The notes: generated from the letters alone by a model not told the origin. DNA of 64,000 bases from an uncultured Bacteriovoracaceae bacterium (GCA_964012805.1 CAXGUD010000001.1:1-64000); one strand, 5' to 3'; shown: positions 6,665 to 22,159, numbered from the stretch's first letter. Program-made: numbers and translations.

Positions 6665-8478
6665 TGAACACTCTTTTTAGGTTGAATCTTTTTTGCTTTC
6701 GCCACCTTTTTTGCCCTTTTTAAAGACCACTCTCTTAAAAGGGTTTTATAGGCAACAGTTTTCCCTTTGGGCTTTTCAACACTCATAAGAGCTTTAGGAG
6801 AACCGGGTTGCGATAACCAAAAGTCTCTTCCCTTAGGCGACTTGGCCATTTTTGGAGCACATTTTTTCATACCTATGCGCTCCAACCTTCCCATAATACG
6901 ATCCATCTGATTGGCCAAACGGTCTAAGGCTTGTTGAGGCGTTTTTTCACCATTAATAGCAAGAGAAATATTTTGCCACCAAAGTTGGGCCAATCTCGGG
7001 TAATCTGGAACATTCGTACCGGTCGGTGTCCACCTTACTCTGTCAGGAGAACGGTAAAACTCAACGAGACCACCAAGCTTTGGCGCCATCTTGGTAACAA
7101 CCGGTGAGTTCAAATCAGATTCACGAATAGGTGTAAGTCCTTTAATAAACTTTGTTAAAGAAACCGTTTTTGAAACACTAAACTGGGCATAAAGCCAAGC
7201 CGCTTTTCTCCTTATTAAAGGCGTGCTTTTAAGCATCGTCCAAGAACCTGCATCTTGATAACCAAGTTTCATCCCCTCTTCCCAATAAGGGCCATGAGGT
7301 GAAGGCGCCATCCTCCACTTAGGGGTTCCATCTTTATTAACAACTGGAAGACCTTTTTTGAGGCTTGCCTTTGTAAAAGCTGTGTACCAAAAAATCTGCT
7401 GGGCCACTTGGCCTTGAGAAGGCACAGGTCCTGCTTCTGAAAAAGTCATTCCAACGGCCTGTGGTGGAGCGTACTTTTTCAACCAGTCAATGTATTTCGT
7501 AAGTGCATAAACAGAAGCCGGTGCATTCGTCGCTCCCCCTCTTTCAACGCTTGCTCCTACAGGGCGGCAGTTTTCAACACGAATCCCCCACTCATCCACC
7601 GGAAGACCATTAGGAATTCCTTTACTTCCTGTTCCCGCCATAGAAAGCCAAGCGTCCGTAAAGCGCCAACCAAGGGAAGGGTCTTTTTTTCCATAATCCA
7701 TATGGCCATAAACCCTCTTTCCATCAATAGTTTTAACATCATTAGTGAAAAAATTAGCTATATCTTCATAGGCAGACCAGTTTTTCGGAACACCTAACTC
7801 ATAACCGTATTTTGCCTTAAACTTCTTTTTAAGATCTGGTCTTTGAAACCAATCATGACGGAACCAATAAAGATTCGCAAATTGTTGATCCGGAAGTTGA
7901 TAAAGCTTTCCATCCGGTCCTGTCGTAAAACTCTTTCCTATAAAGTCATCGATATCGAGAGTTGGAAGCGTGACATCTTTACCTTCTCCACCCATAAAGT
8001 CACTTAAGGGAACTATATAATCCAACCGGGAGTGAGTTCCGATCAAGTCACTATCATTTACATACATATCATAAATGTTTCTACCAGTATGCATTTGAGT
8101 TTGAAGCTTTTCAATGACATCACCTTCGCCAATAAGATCATGAGTTAACTCAATCCCCGTAAGCTCAGTAAAGGCCTTTGCTAAAGTTTTGGATTCATAA
8201 GAATGGGTATCAATACTTTCACTAACAACTTGAATTTTCATTCCTCTAAACGGTTTCGAAGCCTTGATAAACCATTCCAACTCTTTTAGTTGATCATCTT
8301 TAGAAAGAGTTGAATCCTTAAACTCTTTTTTAATGAGATCTTTCGCCTTTTTTAAGGCCATTTTTTCAAAGTCAGTTTGGACATCAGTCGAAGCTCCCAA
8401 TCCAATAGAGAAAAGACTCACAAACCCAATGAGTGAAAAAGTTTTTCGAAAAGACTTTAATAAATGAAAAGCTTTCAT
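6661..8478 (-). CDS. ABC substrate-binding protein (glycerol transporter GlpV-like)
   Basis: Signal peptide; NDSDLIGTH, LPDQQFANLYWFR, GHMDYGKKDPSLGWRFTDAW, WTPTGTNVPDYP motifs. Confidence 0.9.
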   Translation of the reverse strand: MKAFHLLKSFRKTFSLIGFVSLFSIGLGASTDVQTDFEKMALKKAKDLIKKEFKDSTLSKDDQLKELEWFIKASKPFRGMKIQVVSESIDTHSYESKTLAKAFTELTGIELTHDLIGEGDVIEKLQTQMHTGRNIYDMYVNDSDLIGTHSRLDYIVPLSDFMGGEGKDVTLPTLDIDDFIGKSFTTGPDGKLYQLPDQQFANLYWFRHDWFQRPDLKKKFKAKYGYELGVPKNWSAYEDIANFFTNDVKTIDGKRVYGHMDYGKKDPSLGWRFTDAWLSMAGTGSKGIPNGLPVDEWGIRVENCRPVGASVERGGATNAPASVYALTKYIDWLKKYAPPQAVGMTFSEAGPVPSQGQVAQQIFWYTAFTKASLKKGLPVVNKDGTPKWRMAPSPHGPYWEEGMKLGYQDAGSWTMLKSTPLIRRKAAWLYAQFSVSKTVSLTKFIKGLTPIRESDLNSPVVTKMAPKLGGLVEFYRSPDRVRWTPTGTNVPDYPRLAQLWWQNISLAINGEKTPQQALDRLANQMDRIMGRLERIGMKKCAPKMAKSPKGRDFWLSQPGSPKALMSVEKPKGKTVAYKTLLREWSLKRAKKVAKAKKIQPKKSVQ

Positions 8479-9344
8479 TCATTCTCCTTATTTAAAATCC
8501 AATTATAAAAAACAAAACTAAACAAAAGAATAAAAAGGAAGTAGATGAGAGAGAAGGCGCTAGCAATGCCTAAATCAAATTGGCCAACAGCGAGTTTCGT
8601 TAAAAACTGACTCAAAAAAGTCGTTGAATTCCCAGGCCCTCCTCCTGTTAGAACAAAAGGCTCTGTGTAAATCATAAAGCTGTCCATAAAGCGAAGCATG
8701 ACAGCGATCATCAAAACATTTTTTAATTTAGGAAGCTCAATATGACGGAAAACGGCCCAACGGTTGGCACCATCAATAGCAGCGGCCTGGTAATAGGCTT
8801 CCGGTATTGCTTTTAAACCAGAATAGGCCAACAGTACAACAAGAGGAAGCCAGTGCCAAACATCCATAACAAGAACCGTCCACCAGGCATGACTTGGATT
8901 ATTAGCGTAATTGTAAGTTAAACCCAATTGCTTTAGAGTGTGCCCTAAAAGACCTATGTCCGATCTTCCTAATATTTGCCAAATCATACCCACAACATTG
9001 TGAGGAATTAAAAGAGGCATGGCCAGAATAACCAAGCAGAAGGAAACTCTTTTTCCCTTTTTAGGCAACAGAAGAGCGACACCAACACCCAGAGGAATTT
9101 GAACAAATAAGACTAAAAAAGAAAAAAGCATTTGCCTTAGAAAAGCCTGGTGAAGCTCTCTATTTTGGAGGACTTCCCGAAACCACTCCCATCCGACAAA
9201 AACTCTTTGGTTAGGCCCCATTATATCTTGAAATGAATAATTGACGACGGTCATTAGAGGAATAACTGCACTAAAGGCAACCATTAAAAAAACAGGAAGG
9301 ACAAAAAGCCAAGCCTTTTCATTTTTTATCTTGCCATCTTTCAA
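8475..9344 (-). CDS. Carbohydrate ABC permease (GlpP-like)
   Basis: AFSAVIPLMTVVNYS, MDVWHW, AYYQAA.IDGA, LRFMDSFMIYTEP..LTGGGPG. Confidence 0.9.
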   Translation of the reverse strand: MKDGKIKNEKAWLFVLPVFLMVAFSAVIPLMTVVNYSFQDIMGPNQRVFVGWEWFREVLQNRELHQAFLRQMLFSFLVLFVQIPLGVGVALLLPKKGKRVSFCLVILAMPLLIPHNVVGMIWQILGRSDIGLLGHTLKQLGLTYNYANNPSHAWWTVLVMDVWHWLPLVVLLAYSGLKAIPEAYYQAAAIDGANRWAVFRHIELPKLKNVLMIAVMLRFMDSFMIYTEPFVLTGGGPGNSTTFLSQFLTKLAVGQFDLGIASAFSLIYFLFILLFSFVFYNWILNKENE

Positions 9345-10420
9345 AGAGACTCTCCAGGAAAAAGGGACACTTTACTCAAGGGAAACTCAACACCAACCCT
9401 GTCTCCATGGTGGATTGAATGGCGACCTTCCAAGACAGCTTTAATTGAAAAAGACTCTTGCTCCAAAGTGAGCAATTGACTTGCACCAAGATAATCCACC
9501 TTTTTCACCTTCCAAACCCAATCATTTAAGAGACAGGGGTTTAAATTTAGACCAACATGCTGTGGCCTTATTCCTAAAGCCCCCACTCCGTCGGATTGCC
9601 TATCTAAGGTTTCAAGGTTTTTAAAATAGGATTCAATATGGGGAGTGACTTCCATAGGAGAAACTTTTCCCTTATGAACTTTGTAATTTAAAAAATTCAT
9701 ACCGGGAGTTCCAATAAAATGACCAACAAAACTAGTTTTAGGGTTTTCAAAAAGGTCTCTTGGACAACCCTGCTGTAATATGCTCCCCTCCTCCATAACC
9801 ACAACTTCTTCAGCAAAAGTAAGTGCCTCAGTCTGGTCGTGGGTAACATATAAAAAGCTCAATTCAAGCTCTGCATGAATCTCCTTTAACTTCTTACGGA
9901 GAAACCTTTTGAGGCGGGGGCTTACAGCGGTTAGAGGTTCATCAAAAAGTACCGCTGAGACATCTTTTCTAACAAGCCCTCTTCCAAGCGAAACGAGTTG
10001 CTTTAAATGAGGTGACAGTTCTTTTGCCCCATCCTTAAAGTGATCGGTAAGCTCCAACAATTCTCCTATTTCTTCAACTCTTTTTCTAATCTCGACAGAA
10101 CCCATTCCGTAATTAAGAAGAGGAAAGGCCAAGTTTTGAAAAACAGTCATCGTATCGTAGACAACAGGGAACTGAAACACTTGCGCAATTTTCCGCTTTT
10201 GTGGTCCGAGGTTTGTCACGTCTTCTCCATCAAAAAGAACCTTACCCTCTGACGGAGTTAAAAGGCCTGACAAAATTTTAAGAAGGGTCGTTTTTCCACA
10301 GCCAGAAGGCCCTAAAAGAGCTATTCTTTTATGCTTTTCAAACATGCATTCAAGAGGTCCTAAAACCCATTTTTTCTGATCGTAGGAGTGCCTTACTCCT
10401 TGGAGTTCAATTTTTGCCAT
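9341..10420 (-). CDS. ABC ATPase (GlpT-like)
   Basis: Walker A GPSGCGKT, AQVFQFPVVYDTMTV, Walker B VLFDEP, YVTHDQ; degenerate signature LSPHLKQ. Confidence 0.9.
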   Translation of the reverse strand: MAKIELQGVRHSYDQKKWVLGPLECMFEKHKRIALLGPSGCGKTTLLKILSGLLTPSEGKVLFDGEDVTNLGPQKRKIAQVFQFPVVYDTMTVFQNLAFPLLNYGMGSVEIRKRVEEIGELLELTDHFKDGAKELSPHLKQLVSLGRGLVRKDVSAVLFDEPLTAVSPRLKRFLRKKLKEIHAELELSFLYVTHDQTEALTFAEEVVVMEEGSILQQGCPRDLFENPKTSFVGHFIGTPGMNFLNYKVHKGKVSPMEVTPHIESYFKNLETLDRQSDGVGALGIRPQHVGLNLNPCLLNDWVWKVKKVDYLGASQLLTLEQESFSIKAVLEGRHSIHHGDRVGVEFPLSKVSLFPGESL

Positions 10421-10452
10421 ATACTGTGCCCTAGAAAATTAACCCTACTGTT

Positions 10453-11535
10453 TTAAGAAACACCACAAGGTGATTTTAGTAGTGGCCCTCCTAATTCAAA
10501 AACATAGGTCTCGCCCCAATTAGGCTTTAAATAATACACTTCACCTGGGATAAGATTTTCTATACCTCGTTTTTGTACCTGTAATTCAAGGCCATCCTCT
10601 TGCTTAAAGAAAGAAAAAGTTTCCAAACCATCAAATTCCTGATCTACCAACAGTGCCTCTAAGCAATGGTCGTCCTTTTTATTTACTATTTCTATATTTC
10701 CAGGCCTTATGCCTAAAAAGTATTCGCCTAAGCCTACCCCTTTCAAATGAGTGGGAACAGGAAACGAAGACGCTTGCCCTAAAACAAGCTGAGACTCTTG
10801 TACACGACCTCTTAAAAGATTCATGGGAGGCTCACTCATCATCTGAGCGGTCTTAATATTGAGCGGCTTTTCAAATACATTCCGGGCCTTATCGTGCTGA
10901 AGAATCTGACCATCTTGTAAAACAATCGTATCGCCACCCAGACTTAGGGCCTCCCTTGGATCAGCAGTTGCGTAGACAACCGTTGAAGAGCCTTTCTTCA
11001 AAATATCCTTTAATTCTTCACGGAGTTGCTCCCTCAACTTGTAATCGAGGTTGACAAGAGGATCGTCCAAAAGAAGGAGGTCTGCATCCTTCGCCAGGGC
11101 CCTGGCAAAAGCACACCTCTGCTGCTGTCCACCTGATAACTCCGTCGGTAGACGCTTTAAAAAGTCATGTAGCCCAAATAGCTTGGCCAGCTCTTCAACT
11201 TTTTGATTGATTACGCCCTTAGCGCAACCCCTTCTTCTAAGGGGCGATGCAATATTTTCAAAAACTGTTAAGTTTGGGTAGTTAATAAACTCTTGGTATA
11301 CAACAGCTATATTTCTTTTCCTTGGACTCAACCCTGATATATTCACTCCTTTTTGAAGAAGTCTTCCACCACACGGCTTCACAAGACCTGCCAAAACACG
11401 AAGTAACGTCGTTCTTTCTCGGCTTGCAGTCGAAAGAAGACCATGAAGAGTTCCCTCTTCAATTCTGAGGTTTATTCCTGCCAGGATATCTTTTCCTTCA
11501 TCACGTACAGCAATATTTTCCATCACCAAGGCCAT
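10453..11535 (-). CDS. ABC ATPase subunit (GlpS-like) with degenerate Walker motifs
   Basis: VYQEFINYP, LSGGQQQR, PLVNLDYKLRE; Walker A reads STASRERT and Walker B reads LLLLDD. Confidence 0.85.
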   Translation of the reverse strand: MALVMENIAVRDEGKDILAGINLRIEEGTLHGLLSTASRERTTLLRVLAGLVKPCGGRLLQKGVNISGLSPRKRNIAVVYQEFINYPNLTVFENIASPLRRRGCAKGVINQKVEELAKLFGLHDFLKRLPTELSGGQQQRCAFARALAKDADLLLLDDPLVNLDYKLREQLREELKDILKKGSSTVVYATADPREALSLGGDTIVLQDGQILQHDKARNVFEKPLNIKTAQMMSEPPMNLLRGRVQESQLVLGQASSFPVPTHLKGVGLGEYFLGIRPGNIEIVNKKDDHCLEALLVDQEFDGLETFSFFKQEDGLELQVQKRGIENLIPGEVYYLKPNWGETYVFELGGPLLKSPCGVS

Positions 11536-11718
11536 GATTGGAATTTCCTTTACTAGAATTAAGGACCTTTAGTCCCTAAAACAATTTCATTAACTTGAGT
11601 TAAATTGAGTAAGGGCGAGTTTAGAACAAGAGTCTTATCATTTCAAGAAATCCTATCAGGAATAATAAATCCTTGATCAAGAAAAGTTAAACGCGCTGTC
11701 TCCTAAGCAGTGGGGACC

Positions 11719-12093
11719 TCAGAGAGAGTCCAAAAGCTCATAGAGTTCTTCGAGAATTAAAGGCTTTTGAAGAAAGAAACTTAAAGACAAAGAAGATGCC
11801 AAAGCTTTTACTTCTTTAATATTTCCTGAGATAAAGACAATGATAGTATTTTGATTCGGCCCATCAGAGTTCCTGATATCCACGGCCAAATTTGCACCTT
11901 TAATCACAGGCATCCTGTGGTCTAAAAAAATAACATCAAAAGCTTCATTATCAAGAAGATCTTTATATTGGTCTTTTTCACTAGCGATAGAAACTTCATA
12001 TGAAGATCTGAGTTCAAGACCTTGCTTAAGCATTTCAAGAATTTCTTCTTCGTCGTCAATAATAAGTATCTTTTTTTTGCCCATAAAACCCAC
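11719..12093 (-). CDS. Single-domain response regulator
   Basis: ILIIDDE, FLDHRMP (phosphoacceptor Asp), FISG, LQKP. Confidence 0.85.
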   Translation of the reverse strand: MGFMGKKKILIIDDEEEILEMLKQGLELRSSYEVSIASEKDQYKDLLDNEAFDVIFLDHRMPVIKGANLAVDIRNSDGPNQNTIIVFISGNIKEVKALASSLSLSFFLQKPLILEELYELLDSL

Positions 12094-12263
12094 CTGGCTT
12101 ACCTGACTACACCGTTTAAGTAATAAACCGATTTCTTTTTCAATTTTACCTGAAATCCAAAAAGATTGAAGGCGTTATCTTTCCATTGTGATAGAAAAGA
12201 TCACAGAACTCATTTAGAAAACTGTTTTAGTCTCTTTCTTTCTATGGCCACCAAATAAAAACC

Positions 12264-12290
12264 TTTAATAATTTTATTTAAAGTCGACAA
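12264..12290 (+). promoter_or_regulatory. Candidate sigma28 (FliA)-type promoter of the motor operon
   Basis: TTTA(AT)-N15-GTCGACAA ending 54 bp before the 12344 start; resembles TAAA-N15-GCCGATAA and similar motifs elsewhere in the window. Confidence 0.4.
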
Positions 12291-12343
12291 GAACTAACAA
12301 TAAGGAATTGTTTTTTAGAAGTTTTAATTTCTAAAACCGGAGT

Positions 12344-13408
12344 TTGAAGGAAAATAAAAAAAAAATGCATAGAACAATTAAATCATTCACCCTTATTGTA
12401 TTTCTTATCCTGATCATACTACAAGACAGATCAAAAGCCGCATCTGAGAAGACCGCTTCCCCCGTTTATAATACTTTTGAATACTTGCTAGGAGAATTCA
12501 AAGCAGATATTGATGGTCTTGCAAAAAAAGTTAGTAATTCGATCCTTCTTAAAGTTTCAGTTGAAGGAGATATAGATAAAACCTTTAATAGGCATGTTAG
12601 GCGGTCTTTAGAGTCTTTTCGCATTAAAGGAAAAAAGTTTCGCTTCCGCCAATGTAAGGCCTGTACTTCTTTAAGGGCCGAAACGATAGGCAATCAAATA
12701 TACCTTAAAAAGGGAATTACAGAATTTAAGGATATTCAGGAAATCACTCAAAAACTTGGAACAATGTCTTACGCGGAAGCAAGTGTCGAGGATACCGGAA
12801 CAAGGCTCATTTTTAAGGTTTCTTTTTTTAGCTCGCTCAATGCAGAACTTCTTTGGAGTAAAACCTATCAAATGAGGCTCGTCAGCTTTGGTGACCTCAG
12901 TTTTACAGCAGCGCTTGAAGTTAAACAGGCCTTTGGAAGAAATAGCCCTCTTCTTTTTAATGCCTCTTTTGGTGAAAAAATCTATGGTATAGGCCTTATT
13001 GACCTCAATGTCACACTAGGCTTAGCATCAGGGAAAGATAACCCCGAGCAAAAAAAAGGTAGTAGTATCGTCCTTAACCCCAATGAAGATTATGTGAACA
13101 GTTACTTTGCTATAGGGCCAAGGTTAACAGTTAACATTAACGAATTTTTTCAAATGTATTCAAACTGGGGAAGTCAGTTTATCTATGCAGGAACCGGTTT
13201 TTGCCAATACACTCGATTGAAAACAAGCAACGATACAGAAGCACCTACTGGAAAATGGGGCCTTCATATTGAAGCGGGGTATGGAGTTCATCTGGGTAGA
13301 ACTTTTCTCATCACAGCAGGTTTAAACAAAGGTCTTTTTCTCAGTTCAGATGACAAAGATCAGGATTATCCTCTTCTCTTTAATATAGGATTTGGATTTA
13401 GGTTTTAA
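12344..13408 (+). CDS. Exported protein with periplasmic CxxC alpha/beta domain and C-terminal outer-membrane barrel
   Basis: Hydrophobic leader; CKAC; LIFKVSFF…ELLWSKTY (CsgG/TolB-N-like ending); beta-strands ending FNIGFGFRF; true start may be the ATG at 12365. Confidence 0.55.
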   Translation: MKENKKKMHRTIKSFTLIVFLILIILQDRSKAASEKTASPVYNTFEYLLGEFKADIDGLAKKVSNSILLKVSVEGDIDKTFNRHVRRSLESFRIKGKKFRFRQCKACTSLRAETIGNQIYLKKGITEFKDIQEITQKLGTMSYAEASVEDTGTRLIFKVSFFSSLNAELLWSKTYQMRLVSFGDLSFTAALEVKQAFGRNSPLLFNASFGEKIYGIGLIDLNVTLGLASGKDNPEQKKGSSIVLNPNEDYVNSYFAIGPRLTVNINEFFQMYSNWGSQFIYAGTGFCQYTRLKTSNDTEAPTGKWGLHIEAGYGVHLGRTFLITAGLNKGLFLSSDDKDQDYPLLFNIGFGFRF

Positions 13409-13427
13409 TTTAAGCAAGCATTTTTGA

Positions 13428-14123
13428 ATGAGTGTTATCCCCAAAAAGAGAAAAACCATGATGAAAAAATTATTAATTTCTTTTTTTATCCTTGGACCGT
13501 TAACTCAATTGAGTTTCTCTCAAACATCAATCAAAGAAAAAGACGGCTATATCATCATAAAAGAAGGAAAAAGCCGGGTTCAACTCAACCTTCCGGAAGA
13601 AATGAAAGGAGCTGATTCCTACATTATAAAGGTGAACAAACTTACAGACTCCAAATCTATTAACGCCGACATTTTAAACCGATCGAAAAACCTAGGTCTT
13701 TTTAAAAAAACAAAGGATGATCTTAAAAAAGGAGCCGTTAACGAAGCCCTTAAAATTGAATTAATCAAAAAAAGCAATGAAGGAACTTTGAGTAAAAAAG
13801 AATTAAAGCTTCTCAATGACTTAAAGGATCAAGAAAAAGATATTAACAAGAAAAAGAATTTAGATGTTATCACAAACCTTGCCATTGAGAGTTATCTTAA
13901 AAAGGCTAATGACGCCTACAATGCGAAAAATTATAAAAAGGCCCTTCATTACTCGGAAATGGCCGATCAATTAGACTCTAAAAATTATCGAATCAAGGCC
14001 ATGATAGGTTCACTTCACTACCGATTAGGAAATGACCAACTCGCCAAAAAGTATTGGACGGATTCGCTAAAGTTCAACCCCAACCAACCGAATATTAAGC
14101 TGTACATGAGAAAAATAAGGTAA
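13428..14123 (+). CDS. Exported TPR-domain protein
   Basis: Signal-like N-terminus; TPR helices ANDAYNAKNYKKALHY and GSLHYRLGNDQLAKKYW..SLKFNP. Confidence 0.75.
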   Translation: MSVIPKKRKTMMKKLLISFFILGPLTQLSFSQTSIKEKDGYIIIKEGKSRVQLNLPEEMKGADSYIIKVNKLTDSKSINADILNRSKNLGLFKKTKDDLKKGAVNEALKIELIKKSNEGTLSKKELKLLNDLKDQEKDINKKKNLDVITNLAIESYLKKANDAYNAKNYKKALHYSEMADQLDSKNYRIKAMIGSLHYRLGNDQLAKKYWTDSLKFNPNQPNIKLYMRKIR

Positions 14124-14198
14124 TTTTTTTAAAAGTGACAAACGTTTCAATCTTAAATGACTTACCTTTTAAGACTGTTCGTTTATGAAGAGATGTAA

Positions 14199-16007
14199 AT
14201 GAGGCTTAATTTAAAATTAAAATATTTATGGATCTTCTTAATTTTTCTTCTCTTCAGCGGGCCTAAAGGTGCTTTTACACAAGAAGCATCTCTTATGAGG
14301 AACCAACTTCAGCTCGAAAGTGAACTTAATTCACAAGTAAGAAAAGAGCTCCTCCAAGTTTTCAAAAAAGAGGAATTTATTATCTCTTCCTCTATAAAAT
14401 TAAAAAGTTACAGAGTTACAAAAGTTCTGGAACAAGAAAGCCAAATAAACAAACAACCTAAAAAAAAGGGAAGTGAGCAAGAAATACTGCCAGGTTTTTA
14501 CGATTCTGCCCCCTCAATAACAAACGAAATGGCCAATGAACAAGTAAGAAAAGTATATGGCCACGAAACAAAAACTGAATTAGAAAAGGCCCAATTGAAG
14601 ATTTTAGTCGATGAAAGCGTAACAGATACCAGGCTTGACGCAGCAAAAAAATTACTCACTCAAAGGTTAACAAATAGCTTTGGAGGAAAAATTGACATCC
14701 AATTCCTCCCAGCTGTCCTCAAATCAAAATTAGCACCAGTTCCTTTTTACCAAGAGTTTACTGGATACCTAAAGGATAATATGGGACTGCTTCTCCTGTT
14801 TTTTTGTTCACTTATCTTTCTTTTTGTCCTTGCTTCTTTAATCAACCGTATAAGGCCAAAAGATCAAATGCCTCCGGTTTGGTCATATAACCCACCTATG
14901 ACACCCCCAATAGATTCAATGGGAGGCTTTGGTGGCCCCCCTCCTCTTCCTGGAGGAGGTCAAAGACCTCATATAGAATTAGGCCCCAACACTCTTCCCC
15001 TACCAGGAAGTCATGAAAAAGAACTTGATGAATTAGAAATAGACAAAAAAATAAACAAATTTGTTAGCGTTATATGCAAAGAACCTTTTGTCACAAGAAA
15101 GTTTTTTCAGACCCTTGATAGAGATAATCAAAAAAGCTTTATGGCGCTTTTTACAAGTAAGAGTTCAAAAGTGGCGCTTGGAGAATTTTTTGGAGAAACA
15201 CTTTTAGGACCAGAAGCAGGCGATATTGCCAGTCTGGACAATGAGATGGACCTTGAGGAAAAAGCCGAATTTTTAGAGTTTATCTCTCTAGAACATGATA
15301 GATTTAAAAACCTTATGGCCATCAAAAATGGCCAGCGTTTTTCTATTTTATCTCTTATGAATGATAAGGAACTTCAATACGTCTTTTCGAATGAGTCCCC
15401 CAGAGATATTGCTTTTCTCCTTCACTTTCTTCCAAGAGACTCCATTTCTGGTGTTTTAAGCAGGATGGATAGCGAACAGAAAACTGAAATTATTTTAAAC
15501 TTGAAAAAGTCCTCTCAATTATCAGGAGAAGATGAAAGAGAAATTGAAGAAAGGCTTAATAAAAAAATTAATACTTTTGCCTCAAGCGCTTTTTCAACTT
15601 TCATGAGTGAAGACTCCTTAGTTGGAAGTATCTTAGATGAGTCCGATAATGCCCAAGAAATTTTAGATAGAATATCAAGTAAAGATAAAAACCTTGCTAA
15701 AAGCTTCAAATCCCACTCATTAAACTTTGATTATTTTATAGAAAATGAATTGGACTCTCTTGCAAGAATTTTTGAAACAATACCAAATGAAATGTTGGCC
15801 TTAAGCCTTATCGAATATGGTAAAGATGAAAGATCAACAATTTTAGAAGCACTTTCCCCCACAAGGAGAAAAGTCATCGCTTCTTCAATGCTCATGAACT
15901 CAAAAGCATCACACGAAGAAATAAGAAAAGCCAAATTAGAGTCATCTAAGATTGCTCGGAAAACCTATCAATTATTACAAAGAAATAAAATGGGTAAGGC
16001 ATCATGA
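14199..16007 (+). CDS. FliF-like ring domain + TM + FliG (middle and C-terminal) fusion protein
   Basis: Signal peptide; periplasmic LESELNSQVRKEL…ILPGF…LKILVD…IDIQF (FliF RBM3-like); TM GLLLLFFCSLIFLFVLA; Pro/Gly linker; FliG-M-like FSILSLMNDKEL…NESPRDIAFLLHFLP; FliG-C-like LNFDYF…LALSL…ALSPTRR…EEIRKA. Confidence 0.75.
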   Translation: MRLNLKLKYLWIFLIFLLFSGPKGAFTQEASLMRNQLQLESELNSQVRKELLQVFKKEEFIISSSIKLKSYRVTKVLEQESQINKQPKKKGSEQEILPGFYDSAPSITNEMANEQVRKVYGHETKTELEKAQLKILVDESVTDTRLDAAKKLLTQRLTNSFGGKIDIQFLPAVLKSKLAPVPFYQEFTGYLKDNMGLLLLFFCSLIFLFVLASLINRIRPKDQMPPVWSYNPPMTPPIDSMGGFGGPPPLPGGGQRPHIELGPNTLPLPGSHEKELDELEIDKKINKFVSVICKEPFVTRKFFQTLDRDNQKSFMALFTSKSSKVALGEFFGETLLGPEAGDIASLDNEMDLEEKAEFLEFISLEHDRFKNLMAIKNGQRFSILSLMNDKELQYVFSNESPRDIAFLLHFLPRDSISGVLSRMDSEQKTEIILNLKKSSQLSGEDEREIEERLNKKINTFASSAFSTFMSEDSLVGSILDESDNAQEILDRISSKDKNLAKSFKSHSLNFDYFIENELDSLARIFETIPNEMLALSLIEYGKDERSTILEALSPTRRKVIASSMLMNSKASHEEIRKAKLESSKIARKTYQLLQRNKMGKAS

Positions 16008-16061
16008 ATGAAGATAAGGAAAAAAATAGTTTTATAAAACCAAACAAAATAAAGGTCTAAA

Positions 16062-16811
16062 ATGCTAGCGAGATTACTACAACTCCCCTTCAGAATTTTG
16101 GGAATAGCCTTGATTTTGGCCGGGACCTATATTTGTGTTAAGTATGATGTGAAGCCTTCTTATTACGGTATTTACCATCCACCATCTCTTGCCCTTGTTG
16201 GTTTAGTTTTGGCCGGTGTGGCGATGTTCAGCTATAAAATTCAAACACTCTTTAGTATTTTCTTAGGTTGCTTAGGTGAATCACCCAGTTCATGCCGCTC
16301 CTATTTTCAAATCATGGAAAAAAAACTACCGGAACTTATTGACGTTTACTTTAGTGAAGGGCCCTCGGCACTAACCTCTCGCCTCCCTAACGGGTCAGAA
16401 AAAGAGCTTTGGCTTCAGGTCTTTACTAAGTTAGAAGCACAAATTTCACCAAGTGATTTGATTCAGGTTATGAATAAATATGCTTCTGACTATAAATCAA
16501 GAATCAATAGAGAAGTTTTAGTCGCCGGAACGGTAGGAAGTTTGGCCCCAACAATAGGTGTTTTAGGTACAGTTTTGGGCCTTATAAAACTTTTAGGGAA
16601 CCTTCAGGACTTTTCAAGCTTGGGTTCTAATATGGCCTTGGCACTGATAACAACTCTTTATGGAATTGTTTTCAATGCGCTTCTCATAACTCCCGTTGTA
16701 GGTCGGTTAGAGGAATATAGGACCTTTAGGCTTCAAATTTTTAGACAGATAATTTATTGGCTTGAATGCCTGGAACAAAAAAGAGCAGGCAGTGTTATAG
16801 AGCATAAATAG
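16062..16811 (+). CDS. motA: MotA/PomA-family stator subunit
   Basis: APTIGVLGTVLGLI.LL.NL.D.SSLG..MALALITTLYG..N….P TM3-TM4 signature. Confidence 0.9.
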   Translation: MLARLLQLPFRILGIALILAGTYICVKYDVKPSYYGIYHPPSLALVGLVLAGVAMFSYKIQTLFSIFLGCLGESPSSCRSYFQIMEKKLPELIDVYFSEGPSALTSRLPNGSEKELWLQVFTKLEAQISPSDLIQVMNKYASDYKSRINREVLVAGTVGSLAPTIGVLGTVLGLIKLLGNLQDFSSLGSNMALALITTLYGIVFNALLITPVVGRLEEYRTFRLQIFRQIIYWLECLEQKRAGSVIEHK

Positions 16812-16841
16812 TCTATAAAAAATAAGGAGTCACAACTCCAG

Positions 16842-17534
16842 ATGACCAAAAAACGTCATAAGGAAAAAGCTTCCTCTTTCGATGATGACCAAGAAAGCGG
16901 AGCTGAGAGCATTTCTAAATCTAGCTGGGCCGCATCCTATGGTGATGTTGTTAGTGTTCTTTTGTGTTTTTTTATCATCCTTTCAACAACAAGTAATATG
17001 AATTCAAAAAATGTTGAAAAAATGAAAGAGGCCATGAGTGATGAAACACCTCAAGGTAAAAAGAAAAAGCTCAAATCAAAAGACGTCATGAAAAAACTCA
17101 AAGAGATAATTAAAATAAAAAATCTTCAGAAGGATATCACTCTTGTAGAGGAACTTGACGGAACAAAGCTCATTATTAATGATCGTCTTCTTTTTTCTTC
17201 AGGAGGCGCAAAAATCATGCCTGAAAACATCGGAGAAATAAGAGAAATTATAAGAAGCTTTATCGACCTACCACCTCACTACCGGTTTAAAGTCGAAGGC
17301 CATACAGATGATGTTCCCATCAAAAGTAGAAAATTTCCTACAAATTGGCACCTCTCAGTTTCAAGGGCCCTTTCTCTTTTACAAGTTTTTCTTCAAGAAG
17401 GTATTTATGAAAAAAGACTAAGCTTCCATGGCTTTGCTTCATTCCAACCTCTTGCAAAAACTGAGGGGCTTCAGGGTGAAGACCTTAGAAAGGCCAGAAA
17501 AAAGAACAGAAGAGTTGTCATTAAGGTTTACTGA
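16842..17534 (+). CDS. motB: MotB/PomB-family stator subunit with OmpA-like peptidoglycan-binding domain
   Basis: W..SYGDVVSVLLCFF (essential Asp), LFSSGGA, VEGHTDDVP, NWHLS..RA, NRRVVI. Confidence 0.92.
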   Translation: MTKKRHKEKASSFDDDQESGAESISKSSWAASYGDVVSVLLCFFIILSTTSNMNSKNVEKMKEAMSDETPQGKKKKLKSKDVMKKLKEIIKIKNLQKDITLVEELDGTKLIINDRLLFSSGGAKIMPENIGEIREIIRSFIDLPPHYRFKVEGHTDDVPIKSRKFPTNWHLSVSRALSLLQVFLQEGIYEKRLSFHGFASFQPLAKTEGLQGEDLRKARKKNRRVVIKVY

Positions 17535-17587
17535 CTCAACAATCATCCATTAAAATAACTTATCAACAAAGAAGATGAATTTATTTT

Positions 17588-18676
17588 ATGAAAAAGAAAC
17601 ACCCATTTTTTTTGGGACTTTGTATTAAGGTCCTTCTTTTTACCATAATTTCTCCTTTCGGGGAAGCTGCAACGAACTTTTTTAAAATCACAAACATTAA
17701 TTCAGGGGGTGATCCACTTGTTAACGCTGCACTTTTGGAATTTGAATCCAATGTCAATCAAAATCTTCCTTCAATAGAAAGTACTGACCTGACAACAGAT
17801 ACAGTCAACTCCAATATCATCTCTAATAAGGGACTTGGAGTTGACTATACAAACTCCATGAAACGTTTTTTGGTAGGCTGGTCTCAAAGTGCTTCAGTTA
17901 ATGTCGGAAGCAGTGAAAATATCCTAAGTGGGGCCAAAACCGTAAAAGGTTTTGGAATGGCAACCCAATTTAACTTAGGGTTTAACCTTCAACCTTTAAA
18001 GAAACGTAAATTGATCAACCTACCTTCATTTTGGGGTCTCGACCTTAATAACTCAAAAATTTTTATGGGCCTAATGACCGGACGAACAAGCCAAAAAGTA
18101 AGTGGTTATACACTCGGCTTCGAAATTTTTACCGCCAACCTCCGTATTATGACGAAGCTCAAAAAAGCTGAAGACTTCAAAAGCTACTTTTTTAAGTGGG
18201 GTGGTATTGACTTAAGCACAGGGCTCGAAACTAATAAAACAGCCCTCTCAGTCAGTGTGCCAAGAAATGAGTCAATTACGGCTTCCAATTCATACAAAAC
18301 AACTTTTGACGGCATAGTTGGCTTTAAGGTCGATTCCTCAAGTTTTAGTATTCCTCTTGAAGTCTCAGCCAGTGCAACCTTCTTTTCTTTTATCGATTTG
18401 TTTTGGGGCCTTGGTACTGATTTAAACTTTGGGTATGGAAGGGGCTCGAGTTTTTCAGACTCTAATGTCTTGATCTTTGATAACTTAAATAACCAAGTTG
18501 GAACTGCTGACGCCGAGTTCAATGTAGGCTCAACAGGGTCCCCCTCAATCTTGAATGCTCGGTGGTTTGCTGGGACCCAAGTTAACCTATGGAAAATGAA
18601 AGTTTCACTTCAAGCACAACATTCTATGATCCACGGGATTTGGGGCTTTGGAGGTAATTTTAACTTCATTTTTTAA
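17588..18676 (+). CDS. Outer-membrane beta-barrel / surface protein (possibly Lsa36-like)
   Basis: Signal peptide; SNKGLGVDY; many amphipathic beta-strands; C-terminal GGNFNFIF. Confidence 0.55.
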   Translation: MKKKHPFFLGLCIKVLLFTIISPFGEAATNFFKITNINSGGDPLVNAALLEFESNVNQNLPSIESTDLTTDTVNSNIISNKGLGVDYTNSMKRFLVGWSQSASVNVGSSENILSGAKTVKGFGMATQFNLGFNLQPLKKRKLINLPSFWGLDLNNSKIFMGLMTGRTSQKVSGYTLGFEIFTANLRIMTKLKKAEDFKSYFFKWGGIDLSTGLETNKTALSVSVPRNESITASNSYKTTFDGIVGFKVDSSSFSIPLEVSASATFFSFIDLFWGLGTDLNFGYGRGSSFSDSNVLIFDNLNNQVGTADAEFNVGSTGSPSILNARWFAGTQVNLWKMKVSLQAQHSMIHGIWGFGGNFNFIF

Positions 18677-18693
18677 GTATTCGGATTCTTTCT

Positions 18694-21288
18694 TTAGATA
18701 CTTGGAATAATTAAAGAAAAGGTTGTCCCCTCTCCTTCCTTCGTATCAATTTCGATTCTGCCGCCTAGACTTTCAATATTTTTAAGGACGACATCCATTC
18801 CCACTCCCCTACCGGATATCTCAGTTACATTACTCGCCGTCGAAAAGCCTGGTTTAAAAATGAGTTCTGTCTTTTCTTTTTCATTTAAAAAGTCTTTCGT
18901 GGAATCTATGAGACCTTTTTCTATGGCCTTATTATAAACATCTTCACCATTGATTCCCCGGCCATCATCTTTCAAAGTTAGAATAATATCAGGTCTTTTA
19001 CGGGTTAGACTAACTTCTATATTTCCACTTTTTTCAATTCCATGAGCTATACTATTATTGATAAGATGGATAACAGATTCCCTTATAATTTTTGCATTTT
19101 TTCTGTCAAAAAGGGCCTCTACTCCACTTACTTTAAAAGATACATTTTTTTCAAGTTTTCTTGCTTCTCTAAAAACTGTTGGCTTTAACTTCAACAATTC
19201 TCCTTTTAATTCACTCATCATGAGGTTTGCAAAAATTCTTAAAACGGCTTTTGCAGAAGTCATCTCTTTAGCTGAATGAAGAGCTACTTCAAATTTATTT
19301 TTTGGGACCTCGATAAACTCCTCAGACCCATCACTTTCAGAGGAAAGAAACTCTTCCCCAAAAACTTCTTGCGCGCTCTCTTTATAAAAAGTAAGGAGTT
19401 CCGTGAGCATTTCTTTAGTCCGTTCTATCCCATTTTTTTCATAATCAGTTTCAAATCCATGAACTTTATTACTTAATGACTCCAAATTAAAGAACCTTGA
19501 ACTTCCTTTAATTGTGTGCAGACTTCTTTTGACCCCTTCCTCATCACCCCACTCTTCCAATGTTTCAAAAACCTCTTTAATAAAAACTCTAAATTCACTT
19601 TTAGTATTGGAAACAATTTCCTGGAGGACTTGAATCCTGTATTCAGCTTTTTCCTGAGAAACTCTAACAGCTTCTTTTAACTTTTCCTCCTCAGTTATGT
19701 CCTCAATAATAAACATAATTCTTCTTACGATTTCTTGATCATCAATAATAGGACTTAATTGAATTTTTACAATCTTCTCATCTCCGTTTTCCATTTTTAA
19801 ATTAGTCATCTTGGGAATAACATCTTGCATACTATCAAATTGGAAAATATCCATGTTGATAGAAATACTAAAGACAAAGGCCATTTTTTCTCTAAATTCT
19901 TGATTAAAAAGCTCCGCACATACATTTTTCCCTACAATATCTACACCAAATATTTCCGCAGAGTATTTTGAGACAGGAAAAATTACTTTATAAGATTCAT
20001 CCACAGAAAAAACAGCTTGGCGCATATTATTCAATATATCTTTTGTCTCATTCAATGAGGAAAAGAGTTCATTTGTCCTTGCTTTAACTTTATTTTCCAA
20101 ACCCAAATTTGTTTTTTCAATTTTACGATAGAGCAATTTAAGTTTATGGTTAGCATCATTTAACTCTTCCGCCCTAATTGCGATGTCATCCCTTTGTAAT
20201 TTTATATACTCTGCAAAACCAAAGGACAGAACAATAAGCTTGAGAGAAGTACCTAATAAAAGAGAGTTATCAATGAAGAGGTAAGGTCCAAGAACTTTAA
20301 ATTTAAATAATATCTGGACAATAACAAACAGAACAAAAATATTAAGCGATATGAAAAAATATTTAGCAGTAACACTACCCTTCCTTAATTCATCGTAGGA
20401 AAACCAGAATGAAAAAATTATGATGGTTGAAAAATAAAAATAAGAAAAGCCTAGGCCGGCCGTAATGGGAGTAAAGAGGCAAACAAAGGTCAGGACGAGT
20501 CCTCCCTTTATAAAATTGTTGCAAAAGTGCAGTAGTTTTTCTCTATCCAGATTTATATAACTTTTTCCAAAAATCAATAAAGTGACGCCAGTTAGGGCAA
20601 CTAAGCTATTTTGGCCTTGACCAGATAACCAGGAACCTTTAAGAAAAGAAACAAATACCATAAGCGTTAATGATAAAACAAAGGCATAAAGAGAAAAAAG
20701 AATATAGTTAATATAATTGGAGGTTAAATAATTGAAAATATTATAAATTATTAATAAAATAATAACTCCATAAAAAAATGAATATAAAGTTTTTTCTTCA
20801 AATTGTTTTTCATAGAAAGAATCAATCTTTAAAATAGAGATGGGCAACTTTACTTTTTCTTTAAACCTATTACTTTTAAGAACTTGGATAAGCACTTCAC
20901 TTGTATTTGATTTAATTTTAAAACTAGGATGTCTATTTTTTAGCCTGAAAAGCATAGAATTATCAGGAGACCAAACCTCAGTTCCTCCTGAAGCTGACTT
21001 ATAGTAGAATTTAAAGTTCTGAAAATAGCTATTGTTTATAGTAATAACCTTTTCGAAAGGCCGCTTGGAAATTTTAACCTTTATGTATAGGTCTTTTTTA
21101 AAATCATTTAAGATATAGGAGTCTTCGATGGATTTAACTTTTTGAATATTATTTGGTTTAATAAGTCCTTTGACACCTTCTTCTAACGAACCCAAATATT
21201 GAAAAGCCTCGACTTCATATCCAGAACCAGAAAAACTATTTCCCATGAATAAAGAAATAAAAAATAGAAATGTTATTACTGTTCTCAA
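18694..21288 (-). CDS. 7TM-DISM sensor with PAS-like, Hpt and CheA-type HATPase domains
   Basis: Extracellular domain, about 7 TM helices, coiled coil LENKVKART.EL, Hpt SLHTIKG, HLINNSIAHG, DDGRG, GFST…SGRGVGMDVV; no CheW domain. Confidence 0.85.
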   Translation of the reverse strand: MRTVITFLFFISLFMGNSFSGSGYEVEAFQYLGSLEEGVKGLIKPNNIQKVKSIEDSYILNDFKKDLYIKVKISKRPFEKVITINNSYFQNFKFYYKSASGGTEVWSPDNSMLFRLKNRHPSFKIKSNTSEVLIQVLKSNRFKEKVKLPISILKIDSFYEKQFEEKTLYSFFYGVIILLIIYNIFNYLTSNYINYILFSLYAFVLSLTLMVFVSFLKGSWLSGQGQNSLVALTGVTLLIFGKSYINLDREKLLHFCNNFIKGGLVLTFVCLFTPITAGLGFSYFYFSTIIIFSFWFSYDELRKGSVTAKYFFISLNIFVLFVIVQILFKFKVLGPYLFIDNSLLLGTSLKLIVLSFGFAEYIKLQRDDIAIRAEELNDANHKLKLLYRKIEKTNLGLENKVKARTNELFSSLNETKDILNNMRQAVFSVDESYKVIFPVSKYSAEIFGVDIVGKNVCAELFNQEFREKMAFVFSISINMDIFQFDSMQDVIPKMTNLKMENGDEKIVKIQLSPIIDDQEIVRRIMFIIEDITEEEKLKEAVRVSQEKAEYRIQVLQEIVSNTKSEFRVFIKEVFETLEEWGDEEGVKRSLHTIKGSSRFFNLESLSNKVHGFETDYEKNGIERTKEMLTELLTFYKESAQEVFGEEFLSSESDGSEEFIEVPKNKFEVALHSAKEMTSAKAVLRIFANLMMSELKGELLKLKPTVFREARKLEKNVSFKVSGVEALFDRKNAKIIRESVIHLINNSIAHGIEKSGNIEVSLTRKRPDIILTLKDDGRGINGEDVYNKAIEKGLIDSTKDFLNEKEKTELIFKPGFSTASNVTEISGRGVGMDVVLKNIESLGGRIEIDTKEGEGTTFSLIIPSI

Positions 21289-21335
21289 TTTTTTTTCAAC
21301 TTTTTCACTTTTAAATTAGTACTTGCTGATAATAC

Positions 21336-21362
21336 TTGTCGGCTAAAATAGAAAGAACCTAA
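21336..21362 (-). promoter_or_regulatory. Candidate sigma28-type promoter
   Basis: TTAG-N15-GCCGACAA on the minus strand, about 48 bp upstream of 21288. Confidence 0.5.
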
Positions 21363-21447
21363 ACCATTGAAATAAATAATTAGATGCTCTTAAAACGCCA
21401 AAATTTAAACTTAGTGAGAGTAGAAAAAATCAGCAAAGAAAGGTAGT

Positions 21448-21876
21448 TTAAAGGACCTTATTGAAACCATTAGTGGTTAAAATATCAATCGCAGCATCGA
21501 CCTCAAATCTATAAAAAACATTGAAGTCTTGTGGGAAATAAGATGTAGCATTATCTAAACATGAACTAATTTTTCTTACAGAAATCTTATTAGAAAACTT
21601 TGAACAACCTATATAATCCATAAATCTGTCCCCGAACTCGACTCTTTTTAAAAGGTAGAGCGCTAGTCCCCTATTTTTGTTATCGATTATCAAGTATTTG
21701 GAAATGACGTTCTTTACGATTAAAATTCTAAAAAGGTCATAAGGACTTTTTTCACTTAAGTTTTCTTTTTCAAAGATATAGGACCTTTTAGGAAAATGAA
21801 TACCACCAAAGGCCCCATGAGAAGTAAACAAAATAACTATAAATAATACTTTTAATATTCCATTCATTGTTTTCAC
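21448..21876 (-). CDS. Secreted hypothetical protein
   Basis: 142 aa, signal-peptide-like N-terminus, one Cys pair. Confidence 0.5.
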   Translation of the reverse strand: MKTMNGILKVLFIVILFTSHGAFGGIHFPKRSYIFEKENLSEKSPYDLFRILIVKNVISKYLIIDNKNRGLALYLLKRVEFGDRFMDYIGCSKFSNKISVRKISSCLDNATSYFPQDFNVFYRFEVDAAIDILTTNGFNKVL

Positions 21877-22121: not shown

Positions 22122-22148
22122 TAGGCCTCTTCCCGGAGGAAGGGCCTA
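22122..22148 (-). terminator. Stem-loop downstream of the lipoprotein gene
   Basis: TAGGCC(T)CTTCC-cgga-GGAAGGGCCTA inverted repeat 12 bp past the stop codon. Confidence 0.65.
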
Positions 22149-22159
22149 AACTTAAGGAA

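Follow-up and report, generated by a model that had tools for sequence, protein, structure and literature searches.

The stretch of DNA analysed here (the window) comprises 64,000 nucleotides from an uncultured Bacteriovoracaceae bacterium (GCA_964012805.1, CAXGUD010000001.1:1-64000). It contains a gene in which a periplasmic domain resembling the third ring-building motif (RBM3) and the beta-collar of the flagellar protein FliF is fused, through a single transmembrane (TM) helix, to the middle and C-terminal domains of FliG (FliG_M and FliG_C). The gene of this protein, named P0001, is preceded by two genes coding for putative envelope proteins (U1 and U2) and followed by the genes of a MotA-like and a MotB-like stator subunit; these five genes constitute the module (Table 1). 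From U1 through a sixth gene on the same strand, the gaps are of 19 to 75 bases. The genes are called an operon because of these short same-strand gaps and of the synteny described below; consensus promoter and terminator scans of positions 11500-19000 gave no excess over shuffled sequences (19 vs 18.4 and 5 vs 6.8, respectively). A terminator-like hairpin is present at 17614-17634, just inside the called start of the sixth gene. An earlier note, made from the sequence alone, had described an open reading frame (ORF) with a signal-peptide-like start, a periplasmic domain, one TM helix, a Pro/Gly linker, FliG_M and FliG_C, and all these elements are present. That note had missed the strongest evidence, which is the occurrence of a dedicated MotA/MotB pair and of two conserved envelope genes in the operon.

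Table 1. Features of the five-gene module, of the fused protein P0001 and of the adjoining sixth gene (window positions; residues are those of P0001).
Feature	Length or residues	Position	Strand	Remarks
U1, first module gene	354 aa	12344..13408	+	Hydrophobic N-terminus, CxxC, outer-membrane beta-barrel-like C-terminal half
U2, second module gene	231 aa	13428..14123	+	Hydrophobic N-terminus, C-terminal tetratricopeptide repeats (TPR)
Fused FliF(RBM3)-FliG gene, P0001	602 aa	14199..16007	+	ORF has exactly these limits
Signal-peptide-like N-terminus	1-27	14199..14279	+	Predicted cleavage before Q28
Periplasmic alpha-beta-beta-alpha-beta domain, RBM3 + beta-collar-like	28-196	14280..14786	+	With beta-hairpin of about 25 residues
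LPGF motif	97-100	14487..14498	+	Loop at tip of the long hairpin
Single TM helix	197-215	14787..14843	+	Hydropathy peak 3.03, the only TM peak
Pro/Gly-rich linker	217-275	14847..15023	+	Predicted disordered
Conserved helical segment	276-385	15024..15353	+	Contains KKINKFV..ICKEPFVTRKFF; matches no library family
FliG middle domain	391-462	15369..15584	+	PF14841, 43.1 bits (cut-off 25)
FliG C-terminal torque domain	491-588	15669..15962	+	PF01706, 33.4 bits (cut-off 23.3)
MotA-like stator subunit	249 aa	16062..16811	+	PF01618, 69.7 bits
MotB-like stator subunit	230 aa	16842..17534	+	MotB_plug 42.6 bits; OmpA-like peptidoglycan-binding domain 37.4 bits; TM helix with conserved Asp
Sixth gene, Lsa36-family-like surface (lipo)protein	362 aa	17588..18676	+	NF047512, 71.6 bits (cut-off 90)

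The N-terminus of P0001 displays a basic start followed by a hydrophobic run of 10 residues (L10-F19). The -3/-1 site AFT/QEAS is found after this run, and the close homologues have TFS/Q and TSA/Q at the same place. Being short and followed by a conserved -3/-1 site, the run is more likely a cleavable signal peptide than a first TM helix (TM1) of the FliF type, a call made by eye with the -3/-1 rule, which is a heuristic. In P0001, the sequence RIRPK directly follows the TM helix, as expected from the positive-inside rule. The N-terminal signal, the single TM helix and this basic motif together indicate that the RBM3-like domain is periplasmic and the FliG part cytoplasmic. The same topology signals recur in the family: among the 156 family proteins compared, 111 have at least 480 residues, and a hydrophobic N-terminus is found in 107 of these, a hydropathy peak between residues 141 and 338 in 105, and the combination of a hydrophobic N-terminus with one peak in this interval in 101. 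Beyond the membrane, the linker reaches a Pro + Gly content of 53% over 40 residues from residue 231, and its pLDDT (per-residue model confidence) is below 50 in a full-length AlphaFold2 model; this model, calculated from 6 sequences, has a pLDDT of 56.6 and was used for secondary structure only. The helical segment after the linker is invariant among the close homologues.

The periplasmic domain was folded alone by AlphaFold2 with a 68-row alignment (residue numbers are those of the first row plus 27), giving a pLDDT of 87.7 and a predicted TM-score (pTM) of 0.65. The model contains a helix (29-52), a strand (60-84), the LPGF loop, a second strand (113-138), a helix (143-161), a strand (165-172) and a pre-membrane helix. 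The two strands of the hairpin, of about 25 residues each, are inserted in the ring-building motif. The elements that the earlier note had assigned to the RBM3 pattern, i.e. LESELNSQVRKELLQ, FIISSSIKL, LPG, LKILVD and IDIQF, fall in the helices, strands and loop of this model. When the model was compared with the PDB using Foldseek, ranks 1 to 18 were all occupied by S-ring chains of FliF, with E-values from 5.9e-8 to 1.2e-4 and a probability of 1.00. The matched region is RBM3 and the collar, in chains from Salmonella and Vibrio and in one FliF-YlxF model. SpoIIIAG came at rank 19 (E 0.012). The TM-scores of the FliF matches are modest (0.31-0.46) and the root-mean-square deviation is of about 10 A, which is expected since the free monomer model, with its long hairpin, is laid on a subunit derived from a ring. 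VIA-align, which is independent of Foldseek, was run against 48,161 representative chains and placed the same three FliF entries at the top, with Z-scores of 12.8, 11.6 and 11.5 over 132-133 residues (positions 1-148 of the model on FliF 230-438 or 258-451). Its next matches have Z-scores of at most 9.1 over about 80 residues of a generic core. The FliF ring structures were published after the AlphaFold2 weights used here were trained, which would make recall of a template less likely. The best match by two aligners therefore supports a FliF RBM3/beta-collar fold for the modelled domain, as proposed in the earlier note. A four-copy complex prediction of the domain gave scores of 0.01 and 0.22 for a mark of 0.42, which speaks neither for nor against a ring.

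At the sequence level, the alignment of 13 N-terminal rows with three FliF sequences by hhalign gave an E-value of 0.001 and a probability of 21%. This alignment is co-linear with the structural match (family positions 32-172 on FliF 241-431) and sets the family LPGF on the conserved (I/V)PGA of FliF. No motif of the periplasmic domain is more conserved than LPGF: its P, G and F hardly vary (at least 90%) in the 68 sequences, and F100 is invariant in the 13-sequence alignment. A profile built from the 68 family members matches FliF 245-284 with an E-value of 0.12. The family PF08345 (YscJ_FliF_C) has no match on P0001; it is reached by 2 of the 68 relatives at E<=0.01 (best 1.8e-4), and also occurs in minorities or majorities of some ESM Atlas clusters with a similar architecture. 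A tblastn search of the host genome with FliF of the same genus gave no match, and the likeness to FliF is therefore beyond plain sequence search. Concerning the first two ring-building motifs, PF01514 (RBM1-RBM2/SctJ-homology) gave no match on P0001, nor at this locus in the genome search, and the AlphaFold2 model leaves space for a single domain in the periplasmic part. These data fit the absence of RBM1 and RBM2 that had been suggested beforehand.

The genome search recovers FliG_C in P0001 at the coordinates given in Table 1, and in the 68-member set FliG_C is detected in 63 and FliG_M in 43 proteins. By sequence, the best solved relative of P0001 is FliG of Thermotoga maritima (E 6e-8). 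The 68-member profile matches the FliG chains of the PDB over about 200 positions, with E-values from 1.1e-35 for the T. maritima protein to about 1e-15, whereas the same profile matches MgtE only over about 55 positions (E 0.003-0.009). On these profile matches the C-terminus is FliG and not MgtE_N. The earlier note would have been refuted by a C-terminus of the MgtE_N type or by a periplasmic part unlike ring-building motifs, and neither is seen. The score of P0001 with the FliG equivalog TIGR00207 is 44.4 bits, and the cut-off of 226.7 is not reached. Judged by these profiles, the C-terminal third is FliG-like, yet P0001 is not an ordinary FliG. FliG_N (PF14842) scores 17.2 bits, below its cut-off of 25, and is placed on residues 401-496, in the M region. 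FliG_N matches at E<=0.01 are found in 9 of the 68 members. When 30 relatives were scanned singly, one match was obtained at E<=0.001 (P0027, residues 374-465), again on the FliG_M region. We read these matches as cross-matches between related repeats, and a very divergent FliG_N may be located in residues 276-385. The comparison of six close homologues with FliG of Escherichia coli by hhalign gave a probability of 5.8% and aligned only 110-280, the alignment being too shallow. The helix ICKEPFVTRKFF, previously taken for a junction like that of FliF-C and FliG-N, is not confirmed as such, no true FliG_N domain being detected.

Several functional motifs of FliG are altered in P0001 (E. coli residues are numbered from the annotated K-12 record). 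The EHPQ motif, involved in FliM binding, aligns with ESPR (399-402), and an Asn occupies the column of R160. The hinge MFLF aligns with SLNF (507-510); the pattern hydrophobic-x-hydrophobic-acid-Asp is kept in the hinge, and MFXF is not. Both replacements had been noticed from the sequence, and the alignment agrees with them. In the 68 members, the EHPQR columns contain E in 30/68 and P in 27/68 sequences and Q, N or S at R160, and His is not among the six commonest residues of the H column; according to this alignment, the FliM-binding motif is lost across the family. In the torque helix, the columns of K264, D288, D289 and R297 are occupied in P0001 by I, S, S and S (S562 and S563 correspond to D288 and D289), and the D288 column is a Ser in 42 of the 68 members. 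On the other hand, an Arg is found one column from R281 in 65 of the 68 sequences (R556 in P0001).

In the stator genes of the window, the MotA_ExbB, MotB_plug and OmpA-like domains are all above the Pfam cut-offs. Among the NCBIfam models, the best match of the window MotA is the flagellar MotA/PomA/MotP family, with 66.4 bits vs 29.0 bits for TolQ, and the best match of MotB is the MotD/MotB/MotS family (121.7 bits for MotD). The residues of the ion path are conserved: Asp32 of MotB is found in 7/7 cognate MotBs, P173 of MotA in 17/17 sequences and P222 in 16/17, the exception being a gap in a short ORF call. With its ion-path residues conserved, the stator looks functional. The cytoplasmic loop of MotA is about 18 residues shorter than that of E. 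coli. In the flagellar motor, R281 of FliG pairs with E98 of MotA and D289 with R90, according to the available part of a study on MotAB evolution (PMC12505986). The R90 column contains Tyr or Phe in all 11 type-1 cognates and N or Y in the six of type 2, while the E98 column is acidic in 9/11 type-1 and 2/6 type-2 sequences. It looks as if one rotor-stator pair had been kept and the other lost on both sides, a pattern expected of a co-evolving contact; this reading of the Arg/E98 contact is drawn from alignments in a poorly conserved loop.

No Pfam or NCBIfam family was found above cut-off for U1, and its profile gave nothing below an E-value of 1 against the sequences of the PDB. Eleven U1 sequences align from end to end with an invariant CxxC (C104, C107). 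The C-terminal half is rich in Gly and aromatic residues and, in the window U1, ends with GFGFRF. Weak matches to Pfam OMP_b-brl families, below cut-off, are obtained with the window U1, and the ESM Atlas gives, as leads only, clusters combining an LpoB/CsgG-like N-terminal domain with an outer-membrane protein barrel. The window U1 and the first gene of distant loci were aligned by hhalign over 156 columns with an E-value of 1.6e-5 and a probability of 79%, the CxxC being aligned. Concerning U2, the families TPR_2 and TPR_1 are below cut-off in the window and above it in orthologues of other loci, and the C-terminal TPR region is homologous across all loci by BLASTP and hidden Markov models.

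The association of the fused gene with the stator genes has been examined in 20 loci (the window, L001, L015-L021, L027-L033 and L036-L039), and MotA/MotB genes adjoin the fused gene in all of them except L021. The locus L001, from a metagenome-assembled genome of the Halobacteriovoraceae and a close relative, has the same layout as the window. The homologues of L015-L021 come from other families of the phylum and are about 20% identical. In L015, L016, L017 and L019, the five genes are all present and their order is unchanged, the stop codon of one gene frequently overlapping the start of the next. U1 and U2 precede the fused gene in 5 genome loci. An independent sub-clade of metagenome contigs shows the same arrangement: MotA follows the fused gene in 7/7 loci, MotB comes next in 6/6 where the contig reaches, and U1 and U2 precede it in 4/4 loci whose contigs reach (this sub-clade comprises 9 loci, of which L034 and L035 were dropped because their matches span only 30-41 residues). 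Beyond the core, the gene content varies between loci. No flagellar genes adjoin the module in the loci examined, and no export, rod or switch genes were found among the 14 ORFs scanned in the window (6661-24050) nor in the other loci.

A second variant of the module is represented by L018, L020 and L036-L039. It consists of U2, a longer fused protein (614-642 residues), a gene X, MotA and MotB, without U1. Gene X codes for 199-275 residues, with about 200-220 in the more distant branch L036-L039, and matches no Pfam family. In two of these loci U2 is lipoprotein-like with a PEGA domain, and in L038 the MotAB pair is inverted on the other strand.

A word-indexed search has recovered six full-length homologues with 64-90% identity and the same length as P0001, and an exhaustive profile search has recovered 330 proteins at E<=0.001. 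Names assigned automatically in databases, e.g. "FliG C-terminal domain-containing protein", indicate that these domains can be detected. A profile restricted to the N-terminal part matches, at E<=1e-3, 102 of the 111 proteins of at least 480 residues vs 1 of the 35 proteins of 300-479 residues, the length range of an ordinary FliG. This architecture thus characterises a family of at least about 100 clusters at 50% identity and is not a chance fusion. Used as a marker of the module, this profile detects it in 37 of the 401 sampled genomes of the phylum, unevenly: 15/34 genomes are positive in one family and 6/100 in the own family of the host. With the single protein as query, 8 of 301 genomes of the phylum were found. 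In the ESM Atlas, clusters that agree with P0001 in length and Pfam content occur most often in Balneolota, Bdellovibrionota, Pseudomonadota, Elusimicrobiota, Bacteroidota and Thermodesulfobacteriota; this taxonomic range is based on feature matches and not on alignments, and gives leads only. The DNA of positions 12300-18700 has near-identical counterparts in marine or seawater metagenome runs (19 rows from 11 studies, of which 7 share at least half of the sampled words and 2 may be the source itself), which hints at a marine habitat. Three short proteins (P0041, P0045 and P0097, of 316-330 residues) begin with a Met at the conserved helix P(L/F)(I/V)(S/T)RK(Y/F)F and group with the fused proteins in the tree discussed below; they may be split forms with a separate gene for the cytoplasmic half, or the result of mis-called starts.

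The genome of the host (130 contigs, no masked runs) is 100% complete by marker genes. It contains nine matches to the flagellin family, a single FlhA in two pieces at contig ends, a single FliM and a FliG with the three canonical domains; from this gene content the host is flagellated, or was recently. FlhA and FliM are on contigs other than that of the module, and with one FlhA and one FliM in the genome, a second flagellar system to which the module would belong is rejected. FliF was found in the host neither by three families nor by tblastn, while it is present in 11 of 12 genomes of the same family and in 15 of the 21 relatives sampled; its absence is due either to a loss or to unassembled DNA. 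The fused protein is unlikely to stand in for the absent FliF, RBM1 and RBM2 being absent and 5 other module-bearing genomes keeping FliF. The canonical fliG is located beside dnaJ at C15:82454-83491 (L040:6455-7492), with 82 kb of contig upstream. In one relative, fliF is directly upstream of fliG. The host genome also contains two stand-alone ORFs of 142 and 141 residues consisting of little more than FliG_C (84.8 and 45.3 bits), at C30:18750-19178 (L003:1423-1851) and C42:26418-26843 (L004:1396-1821); one of them adjoins a gene for an NAD-dependent epimerase.

The surroundings of the module in the window are less conserved. The sixth gene was recovered by BLASTP only in the window and in L001, and is thus outside the conserved core; Lsa36, the family that it resembles, comprises leptospiral surface (lipo)proteins. 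The operon is flanked on one side by a stand-alone CheY-like receiver of 124 residues (11719-12093, minus strand) and on the other side by an 864-residue kinase (18694-21288, minus strand) with 7TMR-DISM, PAS, Hpt and CheA-type ATPase domains. Both are kept in L001 and have no BLASTP match in the distant loci L015-L021; they may represent a clade-specific control input to the motor. An ATP-binding cassette importer cluster (solute-binding protein, permease and two ATPases with MalK/TOBE-type C-terminal domains) is located further upstream on the minus strand, at 6661-11535.

Taken together, P0001 probably represents the rotor subunit, in a single polypeptide, of a compact envelope machine driven by MotAB and devoid of export gate and switch. 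The N-terminal part would be exported by Sec and the signal peptide cut before Q28. The RBM3/beta-collar domain would then oligomerise in a ring comparable to the S-ring, at the periplasmic side of the inner membrane, anchored by one TM helix per subunit; the FliF ring has about 33-34 subunits. The Pro/Gly linker and the helical spacer would lead to a torque ring of FliG_M and FliG_C below the membrane, in 1:1 ratio with the periplasmic ring. Stator units of the MotA5B2 type, encoded by the downstream genes, would bind peptidoglycan by the OmpA-like domain, ions would pass via the Asp of MotB, and the stator would push the torque helix of FliG_C, probably via R556, the Arg that is almost invariant, and an acidic residue in the loop of MotA. 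In FliF, the collar surrounds the rod at the tip of the hairpin. Since the most conserved motif of the periplasmic domain sits at this place, the LPGF tip is the likely docking site for U2 (periplasmic TPR) and U1 (periplasmic domain and outer-membrane barrel-like half), which would carry the output to the outer membrane. No export gate is expected because RBM1 and RBM2 are absent, and a FliM/FliN switch is probably missing as well (no EHPQR and no such genes), in which case the motor might be unidirectional. We hold more tentatively that the five genes form an autonomous envelope-spanning rotary machine, in which a ring of fused subunits with its own MotAB grips the TPR and outer-membrane partners instead of a rod. 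Our guess is that the output is surface motility or a process at the outer membrane.

Several observations weigh against this interpretation. The scores with the equivalogs are far below the cut-offs for MotA (66.4 vs 340) and MotB (121.7 vs 283), and likewise for FliG. Four of the five classic charges of the FliG torque helix (K264, D288, D289 and R297) are absent; R90 of MotA is lost and the E98 column is Thr or Ser in the MotA of the window, so that the contact is not canonical. The sequence-level homology to FliF is weak, as indicated by the low hhalign probability and the negative tblastn search. In L021, the fused gene is accompanied by U1 and U2 but by no MotAB within the 12 kb covered; the genome in question (G207) has two copies of the fused gene, the second (L007) being on the 2.3-kb contig C539. 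The occurrence in mostly non-flagellated phyla comes from the Atlas feature matches only. Finally, the fused proteins are not gathered in one clade in a quick tree of the FliG_M-C region, where the fused label needed 8 changes, of which at least 5 are forced by well-supported branches. In that tree, however, long branches met and the "canonical" label (310-375 residues) wrongly included truncated or short members of the fused family (P0007, P0041, P0045, P0097, P0140 and P0147), so that the tree does not bear on the question of a single origin.

Two other explanations deserve attention, both of which we consider unlikely. According to the first, the module is a flagellar accessory that adds a second ring and a second set of stators to the canonical motor, or scaffolds it. 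TPR and outer-membrane proteins elaborate the motors of some bacteria, such as PflA/PflB and FlgP of Campylobacter, and the module also has a TPR protein and an outer-membrane-like protein, besides a MotA and a MotB that match best the flagellar stator families. Moreover, flagellins occur in the host and in each of the 5 other module-bearing genomes checked, and a canonical FliF in each of those 5, which also weighs against an autonomous machine; within this phylum, the independence of the module from the flagellum is unproven. On the other hand, in the loci examined the module never adjoins other flagellar genes. A scaffold would need neither a FliG_C torque domain nor a membrane ring of its own, and the FliM-binding motif is lost. 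In addition, the module is present in 37/401 genomes vs 15/21 relatives for FliF, so that most flagellated relatives do without it, and the Atlas clusters of similar architecture are commonest in Bacteroidota and Balneolota among others, although this is only a lead.

The second explanation is a non-rotating force transducer or anchor, in which a FliG-like handle for MotAB would transmit force or a signal to the periplasmic domain and the outer-membrane partners, as in ExbBD-TonB and TolQR-TolA; we give it the same low probability as the accessory. The other known non-flagellar motors of 5:2 type all act on a bitopic partner reaching toward the outer membrane. P0001 is also bitopic with partners directed to the outer membrane, and most of the canonical charges of the torque helix are lost. 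This explanation fits poorly with a domain of the RBM3/beta-collar type, which forms large rings in FliF and SpoIIIAG, and with a long hairpin that makes sense solely as the stave of a barrel. FliG_M and FliG_C also remain together, as they do in the part of FliG that forms a ring.

It is very improbable that the module is a decaying remnant of a duplicated flagellar cluster without present function: the low equivalog scores, the loss of canonical motifs and the patchy occurrence within the phylum would agree with decay, but every locus examined has intact frames of full length, the 38 matches listed contain no stop, the architecture is common to at least 102 cluster representatives, and the order of the five genes is kept at about 20% protein identity with invariant ion-path residues. 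The possibility that the C-terminal half is an Mg2+-sensing domain of the MgtE_N type, suggested by PF03448 (32.0 bits for a cut-off of 25.9 on residues 341-432, with matches in 46/68 members), is practically negligible, because MgtE_N and FliG domains are related folds for which cross-matches are expected, the family profile gives E-values of 1e-35 to 1e-15 for FliG vs 0.003-0.009 for MgtE, FliG_C has no counterpart in MgtE, and the gene is located beside MotAB.

A single-chain rotor subunit can be compared with several known systems. The order RBM3/beta-collar-like domain, TM helix, FliG_M and FliG_C is that of the C-terminal third of FliF followed by FliG, and the stator resembles that of flagella by P173 and P222 of MotA and by the plug, Asp32 and OmpA-like domain of MotB. 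P0001 differs from the flagellar core in being one polypeptide instead of two, without the seat that RBM1 and RBM2 provide for the export gate, and from FliF by a signal-peptide-like N-terminus in place of TM1. Unlike FliG, it has no detectable FliG_N, no EHPQR and only one of the five torque-helix charges, while MotA has lost R90. The module has no rod, hook, export or switch genes, and it contains two new partners, U1 and U2. The RBM fold with a long beta insertion that is predicted for P0001 is also that of SpoIIIAG, where it builds a ring; P0001 differs by the FliG part and the stator, and SpoIIIAG is a weaker match than FliF.

Laboratory fusions of FliF and FliG in Salmonella and Vibrio assemble rings, and a 1:1 ratio is compatible with a working motor, as described in the available parts of PMC6079021, PMC10941966 and PMC11481574 (see also Francis 1992 and Thomas 2001, as cited in the portion of PMC4768692 at hand). 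Since such fusions form rings, a natural single-chain rotor is plausible. They combine full-length FliF with full-length FliG in a complete flagellum, whereas P0001 is natural, lacks two thirds of the periplasmic part of FliF as well as FliG_N, and has its own operon. A natural fusion has been described in the Chlamydiaceae (Bergeron 2016, PMC4768692): in the accessible text, it is a protein of about 330 residues with an SctJ-like RBM2, one more RBM and FliG_M only, without SpoIIIAG-like domain; it is discussed there as an injectisome partner, and no MotAB is mentioned. As far as this text allows a comparison, both are natural single chains in which a TM helix lies between a periplasmic part resembling FliF and a cytoplasmic part resembling FliG, found in an organism or a context without flagellar filament. 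The P0001 family appears as the converse of the chlamydial fusion, with RBM3/collar only, no PF01514, FliG_M plus FliG_C, and MotAB. The FliF-FliG fusions of Chlorobi mentioned in the earlier note are unsupported, the one paper combining FliG, FliF and Chlorobi being unrelated and the documented fusion being that of the Chlamydiaceae.

Provided that the preferred explanation, a MotAB-driven rotary machine, is true, the module would join ExbBD-TonB, TolQR-TolA, AglRQS-Glt, GldLM-T9SS and ZorAB as a non-flagellar ion motor with envelope-spanning TPR or outer-membrane partners (PMC12505986 and PMC13104615, in the parts available). According to the same partial texts, none of these 5:2 motors drives a FliG or an RBM3 ring, and the stator described here is nearer to flagellar MotAB than to TolQ. 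In the literature covered, which leaves most subscription journals and supplements aside, no description of the fused family was found. It is not mentioned in the available text of the studies on MotAB evolution (PMC12505986), gliding (PMC13104615) and flagellar loss (PMC12199754), nor in the consulted portions of a preprint on the last bacterial common ancestor (PMC13277936) and of a study on the Bdellovibrio stator (PMC11323537). Within that coverage, the self-contained arrangement of flagellar rotor-stator parts in five genes with the partners U1 and U2 is new. A 2025 survey detected rotor proteins in 11% of the genomes classed as non-motile and, in the part available, left their function open (PMC12199754).

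If the module is an autonomous machine, as proposed more tentatively above, it would represent the first non-flagellar use of the FliG-MotA torque interface, in several phyla. If the interpretation as a MotAB-driven rotary machine is true, the module would bear on the reasons why rotor proteins occur in genomes classed as non-motile. The torque core, i.e. the membrane ring, FliG and MotAB, would then be self-contained without export apparatus, rod, hook, filament and switch. An autonomous machine could have arisen from the flagellar motor core by reduction, or be its surviving sister, with no need for a type III export gate at any time. The module would also bear on the origin of the flagellum by asking whether a rotor-stator pair can work and be selected without type III secretion. 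With a 1:1 ratio of MS-ring to FliG, a dedicated stator and few parts, it would also offer a minimal system for motor structures and single-molecule work. U1 and U2, now defined as protein families, are candidates for the output parts, and the module provides a testable case of a flagellar torque core working, or having worked, outside the flagellum.

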